64,000 bases of DNA from Escherichia virus TH38, in sequence record MT446410.1. One strand, written 5' to 3'. Both the position numbers and the translations under genes were made by a program. This document shows positions 3,757 to 48,077 of this stretch, in pieces. Under the pieces are notes generated by a model that was not told the DNA's origin, ran no database searches, and saw only the letters and a program-made list of their open reading frames with translations. Numbering within the stretch: position 1 is the stretch's first letter; each line of letters opens with the position of its first letter.

Positions 3757-4146
3757 TTATTCCCTAGAGCTATTATCGAACACTAAATCACCACAATACA
3801 TAGGATTGGCATACCATTTTGGCACCCCTTCGCTCTTACTCTGAAAGTAAGTCCCACTGTACAGCGGAACATAATTCTTCTTAAGGGCACGTTTAGCTAG
3901 CCGCTCGCTTTCTCCAATGGCTTTCTTAGTCATCGGATTTTTATCACGAATCAGCTTTACATAACGTTTATAAGGTTTCTCCTGTTTTAATAGTACCGGA
4001 ATCCACTCAAACTGGTTCTTTTGTCTTATCACCTGTTCAGCGGTCAGTTTTCGTTGGGCCATTCTATTTATTACGGTATCCGCAACTAGGGCTTTACATG
4101 CGGTTGGCTGATTCCCTGCCTCATAATAAATAGTCAATGTCAACAT
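3757..4146 (-). CDS. Cell wall hydrolase, SleB/CwlJ-like (Hydrolase_2 domain)
   Basis: YYEAGNQP...ALVADTVINR...QKNQFEW motif pattern. Confidence 0.5.
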   Translation of the reverse strand: MLTLTIYYEAGNQPTACKALVADTVINRMAQRKLTAEQVIRQKNQFEWIPVLLKQEKPYKRYVKLIRDKNPMTKKAIGESERLAKRALKKNYVPLYSGTYFQSKSEGVPKWYANPMYCGDLVFDNSSRE

Positions 4147-4193
4147 TAGCTGTGCCGTTGTTATCAGAACTTGATACCTCCTGTTTTACGGGC

Positions 4194-4221
4194 ATAAAAA
4201 AGCCCCAGCCGTAGCCGGGGC
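4194..4221 (-). terminator. Rho-independent terminator (minus strand)
   Basis: Hairpin gccccggctacggctggggc followed by a T-run on the minus strand. Confidence 0.55.
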
Positions 4222-4284
4222 AAACCTGAAAGCAACGCATGACCGTTGCTATAAATACACTCGCAAATGCACTTACAGCAACGC

Positions 4285-4306
4285 AAAAAGCCGCTCAAAG
4301 GCGGCT
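4285..4306 (-). terminator. Rho-independent terminator (minus strand)
   Basis: Hairpin agccgcctttgagcggct plus T5 on the minus strand. Confidence 0.55.
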
Positions 4307-4362
4307 ATGCGGAAGCTTCAAATGGGGAGAGGGCATGACACTACAGAAAGAGCGTCATAGTA

Positions 4363-4545
4363 CTAAAAGAGAGGGGTGCTATTCCATAATGATTTCCTAT
4401 CCCTTTCTCTACTTCTAGATTCTATCTCCTTCTTTAGCAAATCGTTTTCTTCTTGCAAGGATGCTACCAGATGAACCAGAACATCAACTACTGCATCACC
4501 TTGCCGCATCTCTCTGACTTTATTTAGAATCTCTGAATAAATCAT
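4363..4545 (-). CDS. Hypothetical protein (60 aa)
   Basis: ORF; ATGA start/stop overlap with the upstream gene. Confidence 0.4.
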   Translation of the reverse strand: MIYSEILNKVREMRQGDAVVDVLVHLVASLQEENDLLKKEIESRSRERDRKSLWNSTPLF

Positions 4546-4985
4546 TTTACCCTCGCCTCTTTGATGGGGTCGATGTATTTCTCAACGCCCCACTTGTGTT
4601 TACTATCTGCGTAGAAAACATCAGGTGCACATTGGCTTGTTTTAGGGAAGGCTTGCGGGTCTTTCGTGCTCCCCTTAAACTTCTGTTTACCTCGAGTGCG
4701 ACCATTACAGAAGATTTCTAACTTCTTCTCTTCTTCTGTTTTAGCGCCCCCGCTCTGTAACAAAGAACGTTTATGATCGGCTAATAATAACGCATCAGCA
4801 CGATGGACACGATGGCCTACGCGCTTAGGTATACTAGAAGGAACATGAGATTCAGCCTCAGCCTTTGCAGCACGACGTTTTAAACTGCGCTTGCTGACGT
4901 GATTGGTTGCCTTCGGCTTCTCTTTCTCCAGTTCAGAGATAGAAAAACAACGCCCGCCCTTCATGCTGATTTTAGATTTAGCCAC
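4542..4985 (-). CDS. Hypothetical basic protein (147 aa)
   Basis: ORF with a Lys/Arg-rich sequence. Confidence 0.45.
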   Translation of the reverse strand: MAKSKISMKGGRCFSISELEKEKPKATNHVSKRSLKRRAAKAEAESHVPSSIPKRVGHRVHRADALLLADHKRSLLQSGGAKTEEEKKLEIFCNGRTRGKQKFKGSTKDPQAFPKTSQCAPDVFYADSKHKWGVEKYIDPIKEARVK

Positions 4986-26534: not shown

Positions 26535-26753
26535 ATGAAAATGATGAAACAAGCTGTATATGGTTTAGTTTGTTTAGGTGCAGGAGTCGTGGTATCTACT
26601 GCAATCCCTGTAAGCGCAGTTCATCCATTAGTTACAGCACCTGCTCCAGTAGAGAAACTTAGTTCTCAATGTAAGCAGCGAACCATTCAAAATAATCTAG
26701 TTGTTATTTGTCCTGATGCTGAATCTAACGCTCTGAGAAAGATACTACCTTAA
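26535..26753 (+). CDS. Small membrane/secreted protein upstream of the lysozyme (holin candidate)
   Basis: 72 aa, one N-terminal hydrophobic helix, AGGAG RBS. Confidence 0.35.
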   Translation: MKMMKQAVYGLVCLGAGVVVSTAIPVSAVHPLVTAPAPVEKLSSQCKQRTIQNNLVVICPDAESNALRKILP

Positions 26754-26782: not shown

Positions 26783-27274
26783 ATGGATAACGCCGCATTG
26801 CCACCTGTACAACTAAACTTAAGCCCAGCTGGAATGGAATTCATCATGAAGCATGAGGGTATGAGAACCAAGGCTTATAAAGATTCCGCAGGTATCTGGA
26901 CTATATGTGTAGGGGCTACGCGCGATATGAATGGTTATCCGGTTAGACAAGGATTAACGTATTCTATAGAGGATTGTCTAGCTCTGCTAGATAGAGACAC
27001 ACAAGACTCTGTTCGTGCTACTCAGAAGAACATAAAGGTTCCTTTACTAGTTCATGAGTTTGATGCACTCACTTCTTTCAACTTCAACGTTGGCAGTGGT
27101 GCTTTGAGCACATCTAAGTTAAGGAAAGTAATCAATGGAGATGTTAAGGGGGATGTTTATTCCGAATTTCTTCGTTGGGATAAAATAACGGTCAAGGGAG
27201 AGAAGCAGAGAAGTCAGGGTCTTCATAATAGAAGAGTTGCAGAAGCTAATCTTTACACCGAAGGTAAATATTAA
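26783..27274 (+). CDS. Endolysin, GH24 phage lysozyme
   Basis: E...D...T spacing in MKHEGMRTKAYKDSAGIWTICVGAT. Confidence 0.7.
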   Translation: MDNAALPPVQLNLSPAGMEFIMKHEGMRTKAYKDSAGIWTICVGATRDMNGYPVRQGLTYSIEDCLALLDRDTQDSVRATQKNIKVPLLVHEFDALTSFNFNVGSGALSTSKLRKVINGDVKGDVYSEFLRWDKITVKGEKQRSQGLHNRRVAEANLYTEGKY

Positions 27275-35041: not shown

Positions 35042-36010
35042 ATGGGACTTTTCGGAGGCGGGGGTAGTAAAACTACTTCCCAAATGATTCGCCCTGAATA
35101 CATTCAACAGTATATTGACCAGCTTAACCAGCAGATCGGTAATACTAGTTCAGGGGATTATGTTTATCGAGATAATGTAGGGTTTAATAATAATCAGACA
35201 GAGGCACTTAACAACCTAGCACAATCTGGCGCTTTGGGCACTCTCTCACAGCAATACATGGATGCAGCAGGTCAAGGCTTGGGTTATCTAGATAATGCCT
35301 ATAAAGGCTATCAGAGCCTCTCTGGACAAGGTGGGATTACTGGAGAACAGATTGGTGCTCTCGCTGGTCAACTGTATGATGATGACGCTGTGCAAGCAGC
35401 CATTACAGCTAATAATGAACAGGTTCAACAGAACTTGGCACGTAATGCTCTTCCTCAGTTAGCTCAACAGTTTGCTGGTCAACAAGGTTCAGGTGCTCGT
35501 ATGGCTAAATCTTTTGCCCAAGGTGATGCTCTGAATCAGATGCAAGGCCAAGCAACAGATATTACCAATAGTGCCTATAACTCGGCTATTAGCCAAGCTG
35601 AAAGCATCCTCTCTGGTAATCGACAGAATCAGGCAGCTGCTCTCTCTGGTCTTTCTAATATTGGTTCTAACCTTTCTAACCTAGGTCAGCAGGGTGCTAA
35701 TTTGTCTCAACAGCAAATAATGAATCAATGGAATGCAGGGTTGCAGCAACAACAGCAACAACAGAATGAATATGATAATGCCTACCAGAATGCTCAGAAC
35801 GCAGCTAATTGGGGATGGCAAGATATCAATAACCAACTCGGTGCAGCAGGTGTACTTAACGGTGCTCTCGGACAAACTACAACTACTAAAACATCTGGTG
35901 GCAAAGGTGGTTTCCTTGGTGGAGCTATGAGTGGTGCAGCAGCTGGCTCTTCCTTTGGGCCTTGGGGTGCATTAGCTGGGGGTGTAATCGGTGGGTTGGC
36001 TAGTACTTAA
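35042..36010 (+). CDS. Gln/Asn/Gly-rich internal virion protein (paralog 2)
   Basis: FNNNQTEALNNLAQSGA motif; C-terminus GGVIGGLAST. Confidence 0.45.
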   Translation: MGLFGGGGSKTTSQMIRPEYIQQYIDQLNQQIGNTSSGDYVYRDNVGFNNNQTEALNNLAQSGALGTLSQQYMDAAGQGLGYLDNAYKGYQSLSGQGGITGEQIGALAGQLYDDDAVQAAITANNEQVQQNLARNALPQLAQQFAGQQGSGARMAKSFAQGDALNQMQGQATDITNSAYNSAISQAESILSGNRQNQAAALSGLSNIGSNLSNLGQQGANLSQQQIMNQWNAGLQQQQQQQNEYDNAYQNAQNAANWGWQDINNQLGAAGVLNGALGQTTTTKTSGGKGGFLGGAMSGAAAGSSFGPWGALAGGVIGGLAST

Positions 36011-44745: not shown

Positions 44746-46231
<1,486 letters not shown>

Positions 46232-46232
<1 letters not shown>

Positions 46233-46492
46233 TATTTTATTCCACGCTCTTTCAGAGCTTCTAACAATCCATTGTGATTAGCAGCACATTCTGTGTACTG
46301 GTCCTGATACCACTCCAACGTAGTGGCTAGTGCCTTTCCTTGAGCACTCTCTAAAAGAGGTAGGTCAACCCTACATTCAGCTTTTAGGTTTGTTGGTAAG
46401 GGCATTGATTGCCTGCTGTTGTCGCTCATTGAACAAGCTGACATACTCATCACTAGCGCAGACATTATAAAAAACTGGTTTAGTTTTCTCAT
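46232..46492 (-). CDS. Putative lipoprotein-like small protein (o-spanin-like candidate), overlapping the upstream gene
   Basis: Internal start MRKLNQFFIMSALVMSMSAC (signal peptide + Cys); Pro-containing mature part. Confidence 0.3.
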
Positions 46493-46727
46493 AATGCATC
46501 TCTTTATAAACGGTTTCCGTGTTCTTCTTCCAGTTAGATATACCGGTAAGAACCCTCTGAGCAACTTCATCAGCTGCCCTACTTCTTTCAATCTCTAACT
46601 CTTGCTGGTGCTTCTCTTTGTCCAGATTACTGCTATCTGTTCTGTACTCATTAAACTTCATACCACCAAAGAATACAAGAGCTGAGAAGATAACAAATCC
46701 TAGATTATCACTTAAAGTGCTTTGCAT
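46377..46727 (-). CDS. N-terminal TM + coiled-coil protein (i-spanin-like candidate)
   Basis: Start adjusted to ATG with GGAG RBS; TM FVIFSALVFFGG then a charged helical region. Confidence 0.35.
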   Translation of the reverse strand: MQSTLSDNLGFVIFSALVFFGGMKFNEYRTDSSNLDKEKHQQELEIERSRAADEVAQRVLTGISNWKKNTETVYKEMHYEKTKPVFYNVCASDEYVSLFNERQQQAINALTNKPKS

Positions 46728-46740
46728 ATTGACTCCAACG

Positions 46741-46763
46741 AAAAAAGCCACCCGGAGGTGGCT
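46741..46763 (-). terminator. Rho-independent terminator (minus strand)
   Basis: agccacctccgggtggct plus T6 on the minus strand. Confidence 0.6.
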
Positions 46764-46784: not shown

Positions 46785-47531
46785 TTAGAATGGGCTATCG
46801 TTGTCGTCTTCGTAAGTAGAAGCAGGCTCTTTATCAATCGTAGGGATTGAAGGAGTAGCTTCTTTCTGCTCTGTTTCAGAAGCACGAGTAATTTCACGAC
46901 CAGCCAGAGGCATGTTCTTAGCGTCATTAGCTTGAGTAAGCAGGTTGCGCTGGAACGGGAACATCAGTTGATAGGATGCTACGTTCTCATCGGTTTCAGC
47001 ATACGGTTCGAAGAATACCAGAGGACTACGAGCTTCACCAACTGCTGCACGATATTTGGTTGGGATTGGAGAAATGGTCTTGATGGAGTTTTTAACTTCA
47101 CCAGCTTTGTTAGTGTAAGAGTTAACCAGAATGTTAACAGGCTGACCTAACAGAACATCCTTGAACCAAGACAGATCACCTTTCAGTGCTTGAATACTTG
47201 GGTCAATCATCTTGCAAAGATCAAGAATACCAGAGTTCTTAGCTCGTGGGTTTACATCATAGCTCTTGAACTGGCAAGCCGGACGTGGTTCTAATGCCTT
47301 ACCATCGGAATCTTTACCAGTAGCATCAACACCAATCAGCTCGAAAGCTAAATCCATACGGAAAGCCGGATTCTTAGGAGTTACTGCTTTGGTCTTCGGG
47401 TCAATCCAAGGGTCACGATTGTGAACACCCAAACCTACCACACGAACGATACGTGCTTCGTATTCACCATCAGGGATTACATCGTAGTTGGATTTACGGG
47501 AAGCAGTTGCGATAGTTGGAATCATAGACAT
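46785..47531 (-). CDS. Putative single-stranded DNA-binding protein
   Basis: Acidic C-terminal tail ending YEDDNDSPF, as in SSB C-termini. Confidence 0.45.
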   Translation of the reverse strand: MSMIPTIATASRKSNYDVIPDGEYEARIVRVVGLGVHNRDPWIDPKTKAVTPKNPAFRMDLAFELIGVDATGKDSDGKALEPRPACQFKSYDVNPRAKNSGILDLCKMIDPSIQALKGDLSWFKDVLLGQPVNILVNSYTNKAGEVKNSIKTISPIPTKYRAAVGEARSPLVFFEPYAETDENVASYQLMFPFQRNLLTQANDAKNMPLAGREITRASETEQKEATPSIPTIDKEPASTYEDDNDSPF

Positions 47532-47590
47532 ATTTTAATTTCCTTATTTAATTTGAAAGATTGTTGCTCTCTTTGAGCGGTTATGTATAG

Positions 47591-47599
47591 TATACATTA
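47591..47599 (-). promoter_or_regulatory. TAATGTATA motif (minus strand) upstream of the SSB-like gene
   Basis: Within palindrome tatgtatagtatacatta, 60 nt upstream of the 47531 start. Confidence 0.4.
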
Positions 47600-47662
47600 C
47601 GCTTATACCGATAAGAGTACTATATAATATAAGTATCTTTGGTAGTAGATATAACACACTAG

Positions 47663-47671
47663 TAATGTATA
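47663..47671 (+). promoter_or_regulatory. TAATGTATA motif on the plus strand in the same intergenic region
   Basis: Seen directly; no annotated plus-strand target. Confidence 0.3.
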
Positions 47672-48077
47672 TATTGTATAGCTGATAAAGTTATTGCAGG
47701 CTTGTATATTGGGCAATTCACAGAATCCCTTGCAAGTACCGAAGGGCAGGAGCCACCTGCGAGATAAAAATAGAGAATTAAGGAATCCTTGATTTAGGTT
47801 GTAGGGACTCCTAGGGACTTTGATTCTCTATTTAAAAGAATATTAATTACTTATTACCTAAATAATTAACTAACTTACTTAAACCAAATTCAAGAATAAT
47901 AGATAAAAAGATTATTCCTAAGAAAGCTAAAAAGTAAAGGATATAAGTTACCATTCTAGTAAACCTTTAAAGTTAGTTTGTTCTACTATCCTCTGATAAC
48001 GAAGATTAGAATCAGCTTGTTTCTTTAACATCTCATTATATTGATCTCTGATAGAGTCTTTATGTACTACAGGTTCT

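Follow-up and report, generated by a model that had tools for sequence, protein, structure and literature searches.

A probable two-component spanin encoded far from the lysis cassette in Escherichia virus TH38, and HNH endonuclease genes inserted in its dual-coding overlap in related phages

Does a pair of overlapping, out-of-frame genes that lies far from the endolysin gene encode the spanins of Escherichia virus TH38? The question is raised by a stretch of 64,000 nucleotides of this phage (sequence record MT446410.1; 'the window', whose positions are used throughout), which is a Kuravirus (phiEco32-like podophage, Gordonclarkvirinae) genome. The original prediction, made from the sequence alone, had singled out two overlapping open reading frames (ORFs) at 46232-46751 as candidates for an inner-membrane (i-) and an outer-membrane (o-) spanin. 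Both ORFs are present as it gave them and lie on the minus strand, which it had not named: ORF A can extend at most over 46377..46751(-), where it would begin at a GTG (124 amino acids), and ORF B, read in the +1 frame with respect to ORF A, over 46232..46591(-). The observation was confirmed, the spanin interpretation placed on it is supported, and we conclude that a two-component spanin of the phiEco32-like (Kuravirus) kind is very probably encoded at this locus. The pair is already known, having been recorded earlier as a two-component spanin in SpaninDB and in the annotation of phage Paul, and the 2.1 kb flanking it show 96-97% DNA identity to FS2B, phiEco32, SU10, Paul and ShigP1.

The i-spanin gene (46377..46727, minus strand; 116 amino acids, by translation a homologue of phiEco32 gp39 and of the Paul i-spanin) and the o-spanin gene (46232..46492, minus strand; by translation and a match to PHROG 2425 a predicted 86-amino-acid precursor and 67-amino-acid mature lipoprotein) share a dual-coding overlap of 116 nt (46377..46492, minus strand), which holds residues 79-116 and the stop of the i-spanin together with residues 1-39 of the o-spanin. 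The offset and the length of the overlap are the same in all relatives, and an o gene overlapping the i gene in the +1 frame is among the placements that Kongari (2018) describes for spanins, besides an o gene embedded in the i gene and one directly behind it. Frame usage was assessed in eight Kuravirus sequences from the ratio of nonsynonymous to synonymous polymorphism (pN/pS) and from the density of variable sites. The part that belongs to the i gene only gave a pN/pS of 0.08 in the i frame against 1.7 and 2.3 in the others, with a variable-site density of 0.22, and the part that belongs to the o gene only gave 0.09 in the o frame against 20.6 in the i frame and 0.9 in the remaining one, with a density of 0.28; the selected frame changes from i to o exactly at the i-spanin stop. 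Within the overlap, where variable-site density falls to 0.11, the ratios were 0.17 in the i frame, 0.7-0.95 in the o frame and 1.3 in the other. Weak o-frame constraint is what one would expect here, where a signal peptide and linker overprint a conserved i-spanin C-terminus. The +1 overlapped pair is also found in an 88-kb IMG/VR contig (48% and 56% identity), in Salmonella siphophage 9NA (35% and 34%) and in the FelixO1-like myophage Moogle (31% and 27%), so the overlapped architecture that had been called typical of spanins is conserved in relatives down to ~27-35% identity. At the level of sequence, this conservation and the frame-specific purifying selection are decisive for both frames being coding. 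Even homologues with no more than 19-35% identity retain three cysteines without exception, i-C90, o-C20 and o-C69 (Cys20 of the o-spanin across 8 diverse homologues), and the cysteines looked for in the periplasmic part of a two-component spanin are found at C90 of the i-spanin and at C40 and C69 of the o-spanin, all at positions predicted to be periplasmic.

The first ORF had been described as an N-terminal transmembrane (TM) helix followed by a charged helical domain, and this description holds. Its start can be placed at ATG 46727, because the GTG lies in a terminator hairpin and the frame of the relatives is closed upstream of the ATG. The GTG at 46751, inside the 3' arm of the terminator stem (46746-46763), is not conserved, relatives have stops there, and it was rejected as the i-spanin start. 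A Shine-Dalgarno sequence, GGAG, can be read 5 nt 5' of the ATG (46733..46736, minus strand), where a ribosome-binding site (RBS) is annotated in Paul. The predicted TM helix comprises approximately residues 5-23 (LSDNLGFVIFSALVFFGGM; coding region 46659..46715, minus strand), as judged from hydropathy and from a helix at residues 4-21 in a single-sequence AlphaFold2 (AF2) model. The Kyte-Doolittle maximum of 2.23 falls at residues 9-23, the sole hydrophobic segment, with no second hydrophobic window in the protein, and the Paul annotation notes a TMpred transmembrane domain (TMD) at residues 8-23. Outside the TM segment there are 15 K+R and 15 D+E. The AF2 model, which is of low confidence (predicted local distance difference test, pLDDT, 55) and was used for secondary structure only, gives further helices at 34-76 and 93-111, separated by a stretch without helix at a conserved EKTKPVFYNVCAS motif; the charged domain would, on this model, consist of two helices and a conserved linker that holds Cys90. 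SpaninDB gives 61% helix for the periplasmic domain of the PhiEco32 i-spanin. The protein matches PHROG 1152 ('Rz-like spanin') over residues 2-116 (E=1.7e-36), and tblastn finds 31-35% identity over ~89% of its length to FelixO1-like and 9NA-like phages. It has the properties by which Kongari (2018) defined an i-spanin, being small, with a single N-terminal TMD and a periplasmic domain predicted to be mainly alpha-helical.

The second ORF had been read as a proline-containing o-spanin that begins at an internal Met. From ATG 46492 it begins MRKLNQFFIMSALVMSMSAC and encodes an 86-residue lipoprotein precursor with the N-terminus MRKLNQFFIMSALVMSMSA/CSMSD, the predicted signal peptidase II signal peptide and lipobox (MRKLNQFFIMSALVMSMSA/C) occupying 46433..46492 (minus strand) with the Cys20 codon at 46433-46435 and Ser at +2. 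Residues 2-3 are basic and precede a hydrophobic core; the mature 67 residues hold three prolines and the further cysteines Cys40 and Cys69. A Shine-Dalgarno-like AAGAG is found 7 nt 5' of the ATG, within the i-spanin coding sequence (CDS; 46500..46504, minus strand), an element that SpaninDB also marks for NJ01 and that the Paul record annotates as an RBS. The match to PHROG 2425, an unnamed family, has an E value of 3.3e-26. Starts at TTG 46591, ATG 46570 and Met30 were considered and rejected. Upstream stops in relatives fix the start at M-[RK]-K-L; such stops lie just upstream of this start in the IMG/VR relative, in 9NA and in Moogle, and a longer TTG-initiated o-product is therefore excluded. 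The internal Met chosen in the original prediction is right, and better than the start in many GenBank records. A 174-nt CDS from Met30 (window 46232-46405(-)) is given for phiEco32 gp38 in RefSeq, for SU10 gp034, for ShigP1_00076 ('o-spanin') and in the vAPECPW12 paper; this annotation, used in many Kuravirus records including one 2025 paper, drops the signal peptide and the lipobox Cys.

The lipobox had been called non-canonical, with Met at -3. The Met is there, and MSAC differs from the narrow [LVI][ASTVI][GAS]C consensus at this position alone. The motif is not aberrant: MRKLNQFFIMSALVMSMSA/C passes a PROSITE-type rule (K/R within the first 7 residues, Cys at 20, with A at -1, S at -2 and M at -3), the lipoprotein pattern and rule having been applied in our own transcription, and relatives carry L or I at -3, homologues having MSSC, LSAC, ISAC or ISGC at the equivalent position. 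The annotators of Paul quote LipoP SpII 18.03 with cleavage at 19/20 for an identical signal peptide, so that the lipoprotein signal prediction that had been proposed as a check agrees with the assignment. Several non-consensus lipoboxes occur among 528 o-spanins, AWAC having been verified experimentally (Kongari 2018; PMC6139136). The +2 residue is Ser, as Ser or Thr in all aligned homologues, and Asp, the Lol-avoidance signal, is absent. Passing the lipoprotein rule is weak evidence by itself, since three ATG-initiated ORFs of at least 40 amino acids in the six frames of the window do so, compared with 0.87 in shuffled sequence; besides the o-spanin these are two antisense or embedded ORFs of no apparent significance. 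There is no hydrophobic window in the o-spanin outside the signal peptide. A unimolecular spanin of the T1 gp11 type was rejected, as the o-spanin lacks a second hydrophobic window and the TMD belongs to the other protein of the pair.

The closest known systems, phiEco32 gp39 with an extended gp38 and Paul CPT_Paul_036/035, are the same locus. Their proteins are 95% (i) and 98-99% (o) identical to those of TH38 (98.8% for the phiEco32 o-spanin), and the genes of 351 and 261 nt, the 116-nt overlap, the strand and the neighbours (gene 40, a macro-domain gene and the sigma factor gp36) all match. The few substitutions, for example i-spanin S3, R29 and I63 and o-spanin K86, leave structurally nothing different. 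In SpaninDB the PhiEco32 pair is listed as overlapped by 116 nt, at 35417-35768 and 35272-35533, with the i-spanin in the 'JH2' family together with FelixO1-like phages and the o-spanin in a four-member family with NJ01, ECBP2 and KBNP1711 (Kongari 2018; PMC6139136). In the Paul record (MN045231) the i-spanin is CPT_Paul_036 and the o-spanin CPT_Paul_035, and the RBSs and terminator annotated there coincide in position with those of TH38; RefSeq names gp39 'Rz-like spanin'. 9NA gp59 with an unannotated overlapping lipoprotein ORF, and Moogle CPT_Moogle122/121, are true distant homologues (27-35%) with the same invariant residues; the lipoboxes of the 9NA and FelixO1-like phages are canonical (ISAC, ISGC), whereas that of TH38 is MSAC, and the 9NA pair ends a holin-endolysin cassette whereas the Moogle pair is unlinked from the lysis genes. 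Lambda Rz/Rz1 has the parts predicted here, a type II inner-membrane protein, a +1-frame outer-membrane lipoprotein and periplasmic cysteines, and its mechanism is presumed for the TH38 pair, although sequence homology is not detectable (no Rz/Rz1 Pfam match at E<=1 and no relevant NCBIfam match). The Pfam models concerned are PF03245 (Phage_lysis) and PF06085. Lambda Rz1 is wholly embedded in Rz whereas here the o gene extends beyond the i gene, which is the overlapped class; Rz1 is proline-rich and unstructured whereas the mature o-spanin of the SpaninDB entry is ~46% predicted helical; and the lambda spanin genes are the last of the lysis cassette whereas those of TH38 lie 19 kb from the endolysin gene. 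T4 PseT.3/PseT.2 are likewise unlinked to the holin (t) and endolysin (e) genes, and the T4 o-spanin likewise has two periplasmic cysteines and a C-terminal helix. The T4 spanin genes are, however, separated rather than overlapped, the T4 i-spanin is without a cysteine where that of TH38 has the invariant Cys90, and there is no sequence similarity.

The window carries an uninterrupted allele of the overlap. In seven related phages an HNH endonuclease gene is found in an insertion of ~545 bp inside it, between the T and the C of GAGTATGT/CAGCTTGT, which corresponds to 46441/46440 of the window, three codons before the lipobox Cys. The inserts fall into two groups that are ~72% identical, one in KM01, E20-1 and EK010 and the other in Bas87, Bas86, SU7 and PAS59; three alleles were translated (insert regions: KM01 locus 1030-1575, Bas87 locus 1030-1575, SU7 locus 850-1345) and the other four matched at the DNA level only. 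At its start the insert repeats the i-spanin tail in frame and in diverged form, as VSLFNQRQKEAERVLKSKE and a stop in KM01 and VGLFNERQQQAAEALKLKN and a stop in Bas87 and SU7; over the first ten codons, aligned by eye, all differences between the Bas87 tail copy and the native copy downstream are synonymous in the i frame. At the far end of the insert the +1 frame of the last ~20 HNH codons encodes, in each of the translated alleles, a new lipoprotein signal peptide that runs into the old Cys: (GTG) MHIKKKLLSCTGILLAFSLSA/C in KM01 and (ATG) MLTKKKQKSCLVILLASSLMA/C in Bas87, from which SU7 differs at one residue (IFL for ILL). The new lipoboxes are LSAC or LMAC. The insertion turns an overlapped pair into a separated one with both products retained in the three alleles, and this retention provides a natural experiment for the spanin interpretation. 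The new o-spanin start is annotated in the SU7 record only, and in the Bas87 record the i-spanin is joined from two pieces, as an intron would imply.

We favour a free-standing endonuclease with duplicated, recoded flanks over an intron, because of the diverged copy of the i-spanin tail that opens the insert in frame; Rfam returned no group I intron family at E<=1 for the HNH-containing alleles. A side result, better supported than the role before lysis that is considered below, is that the overlap is a homing site that has been invaded by HNH endonucleases in at least two diverged forms. SU10 has an unrelated HNH gene (E=0.024 against the KM01 HNH) that separates gene 40 from the i-spanin gene (SU10 locus 1587-2000), and with the insertions in the overlap it points to this short region as a repeated target of homing endonucleases. 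There is a precedent for the split alleles of these Kuravirus and Suseptimavirus relatives in T5, where the genes are overlapped, as against Shivani and phiR201, where a GIY-YIG gene lies between the i and o genes (PMC6139136); in that case, too, the i-spanin C-terminus and the o-spanin signal sequence were changed. The alleles described here differ from it in that the endonuclease is of the HNH type, the phage family is unrelated and the 3' end of the endonuclease gene doubles as coding sequence for the new signal peptide.

The presumed partners of the spanins are a holin gene (26535..26753, plus strand; 72 amino acids by translation, PHROG 11161, E=2.3e-48) and a gene for an endolysin of the T4 lysozyme type (26783..27274, plus strand; Pfam PF00959 Phage_lysozyme, E=3.7e-32, and PHROG 7). 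The endolysin N-terminus has no hydrophobic stretch by eye, and the enzyme is probably not of the signal-anchor-release (SAR) type. Both genes lie between tail genes in a late plus-strand operon. As had been remarked from the sequence, the pair does not adjoin the lysozyme gene at 26783; the two are 19 kb apart on opposite strands, a layout that is usual for the genus and likewise for T4 and FelixO1-like phages. In a published Kuravirus, holin and endolysin map to 2.2-2.9 kb and the o-spanin to the complement strand at 21.8 kb. With 12 kb between spanins and endolysin in Privateer, the separation in TH38 is not anomalous.

A number of points weigh against the spanin assignment. The N-terminal flank of the TMD, MQSTLSDN, has a net charge of -1 and no Lys or Arg, and the positive-inside rule gives no support for the N-in/C-out (type II) topology that an i-spanin needs; SpaninDB flags the same oddity for NJ01, and a basic residue is present in this flank in relatives such as ECBP2, 9NA and Moogle. 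SpaninDB gives the PhiEco32 i-spanin no predicted coiled coil, and the AF2 model has the low pLDDT of 55 noted above. Neither protein has a meaningful Pfam (E<=1) or NCBIfam match or homology to a tested spanin, neither product was detected in SU10 proteomics, and a literature search gave no complementation, lipid labelling or knock-out for this spanin family. The genes also lie in a middle-gene cluster behind a terminator, outside the lysis cassette. Because no Pfam or NCBIfam model matches either protein, the assignment rests on architecture and on PHROG/SpaninDB clustering; phmmer against PDB sequences gave chance matches only for both proteins (E>0.3). A rival reading is that the two proteins are an envelope pair with a non-lysis role before lysis, for example superinfection exclusion or receptor masking as with T5 Llp or Cor, and are merely spanin-like. 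Their place in the middle-gene cluster, flanked by a gp36 middle promoter and the gene for the sigma factor, with holin and endolysin 19 kb off on the other strand, would fit this, as would the lack of functional data on the pair in the literature and of homology to experimentally tested spanins in the Pfam and NCBIfam scans. We nevertheless regard it as very unlikely. Linkage to holin and endolysin is usual and not obligatory for spanins, and although it is absent here it is seen in 9NA, where the homologous genes overlap in the same way and close a cassette that runs from holin through endolysin and a membrane protein to the spanin pair; T4 offers documented unlinked spanins; and the family shows the hallmarks of spanins in its putative type II TMD protein, its +1-frame lipoprotein and its conserved periplasmic cysteines. 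The 64-kb window yielded no further spanin candidate, and no lipoprotein or TMD candidate follows the holin and endolysin genes. The spanins of lambda are restrained by peptidoglycan, and early synthesis is compatible with a lysis role.

A different objection would be that only the i-spanin ORF is a gene, the second frame being open by chance, encoding a non-lipoprotein from Met30 or giving a longer product from TTG 46591. The many GenBank and RefSeq records that carry a 174-nt 'hypothetical protein' from Met30 and nothing longer could be taken in this sense, lipobox-pattern matches are not rare in the window (3 against 0.87 expected), and the o-frame pN/pS in the overlap is ~0.7-0.95, although that is as expected where a signal peptide and linker lie on a conserved i-spanin C-terminus. 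Strong purifying selection specific to the o frame nevertheless sets in exactly where the i-spanin ends (pN/pS 0.09, compared with 20.6 for the i frame). Homologues as distant as 27% identity keep the signal peptide and Cys20, relatives have stops just upstream of M-[RK]-K-L, and in the translated HNH alleles, whose insert severs the original signal peptide, a new lipoprotein signal peptide stands in frame with Cys20. We consider a single-gene locus extremely unlikely, and the two-component spanin remains our interpretation of the pair.

The mechanism as a whole is one that we infer by analogy with lambda Rz/Rz1 and T4 PseT.3/PseT.2. The i-spanin would have its anchor in the inner membrane and extend its C-terminal domain into the periplasm, while the o-spanin would be cleaved by signal peptidase II before Cys20, lipidated and, with Ser at +2, sorted by the Lol system to the outer membrane. 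Across the periplasm, the two proteins would bind each other through their C-terminal parts, and homotypic disulfides through the conserved cysteines may stabilize the complexes. Peptidoglycan would cage these complexes until the holin (26535) releases the endolysin (26783), whereupon the freed complexes would complete lysis by fusing or disrupting the outer membrane.

The timing of spanin synthesis may be set apart from that of the other lysis proteins. The pair lies in a minus-strand cluster that matches the phiEco32 middle-gene cluster of DNA polymerase, nucleotide metabolism and sigma factor gp36 genes (PMC8948821), from which the expression class of genes 38/39 was taken indirectly. In phiEco32, gp36-dependent promoters (consensus tAATGTAtA) have been mapped upstream of genes 6, 13, 26, 40, 58 and 68 (PMC8948821). 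An exact TAATGTATA, the gp36 sigma-dependent promoter motif, is found at 47591..47599 (minus strand), 60 nt upstream of the gene-40 homologue; there are five exact copies in the window against 0.65 expected, and the copy at gene 40 is kept in all Kuravirus loci examined. Between the gene-40 homologue and the i-spanin gene, a terminator scan identified an intrinsic-terminator-like hairpin, AGCCACC-UCCG-GGUGGCU followed by U6 (46741..46763, minus strand), the hairpin itself (46746-46763) folding as RNA at -17.6 kcal/mol (z=-2.8), and a terminator is annotated here in Paul. The spacer with its hairpin has no room for another promoter. Transcripts of the spanin genes probably arise by read-through from the gene-40 gp36-sigma promoter, with the terminator as a putative attenuator, and read-through of this kind would have the spanins made in the middle to late period, independently of the late holin-endolysin transcript. 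A sigma-70-like promoter match at 46492-46464, inside the i-spanin gene, was discarded as chance, such matches numbering 5 against 10.6 expected in shuffles. As the pair stands behind a gp36-dependent gene-40 promoter and a presumably leaky terminator and is translationally coupled to a macro-domain gene (TAATG), the spanin complex could be loaded in the envelope well before the holin-endolysin transcript appears and have an additional role before lysis, in envelope remodelling or superinfection exclusion; we consider this a very unlikely addition to its function in lysis.

The macro-domain (Appr-1-p processing) gene (45792..46232, minus strand) has an ATG that overlaps the o-spanin stop (TAATG). 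Moogle has a macro-domain phosphatase gene ~1.1 kb downstream of its homologous spanin pair (Moogle locus 4124-4918), which suggests that the neighbourhood of spanin and macro-domain genes is common to unrelated phage groups; in SU7 and Bas87 a 75-amino-acid ORF takes the place of the macro gene. On the other side of the pair is the gene-40 homologue (46785..47531, minus strand; 248 amino acids, PHROG 6599), with its own gp36 promoter and its own terminator. The protein ends in an acidic tail, ...YEDDNDSPF. This tail resembles the C-terminal tips of bacterial and phage single-stranded DNA-binding (SSB) proteins, and the gene-40 homologue may be a phage single-stranded DNA-binding protein; it has no Pfam match and no phmmer match in PDB, and its single-sequence AF2 model was unusable (pLDDT 36).

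The intergenic region between genes 41 and 40 contains further elements. A second exact TAATGTATA at 47663-47671(+) lies 63 nt from the 47591-47599(-) copy and faces the minus-strand genes upstream in antisense orientation, each of the two motifs is directly adjoined by one-mismatch copies within 47580-47680, and the divergent pair is conserved in 9/9 Kuravirus loci examined. The 168 nt downstream of the plus-strand copy have a fold z of -2.7, and this copy may be an antisense or small-RNA promoter; Rfam and ARAGORN returned no matches in the window region. An inverted repeat at 47768-47833, with 14-nt arms that are 93% complementary, a 38-nt loop and UUUUUAU after it on the minus strand, lies just downstream of the 35-amino-acid gene-41 homologue and looks like a terminator closing the upstream unit before the gene-40 promoter.

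On this interpretation the phage has a complete set of holin, endolysin and spanin genes, of which the last, as already recorded for phiEco32-like phages, stand apart from the lysis cassette. Many Kuravirus records need their o-spanin start corrected from Met30 to the internal Met at 46492. The HNH-split alleles provide a second, independent natural example of the change from overlapped to separated spanins, the first being T5 as against Shivani, and are useful for the study of spanin evolution, of homing endonucleases in dual-coding DNA and of sites for phage engineering.

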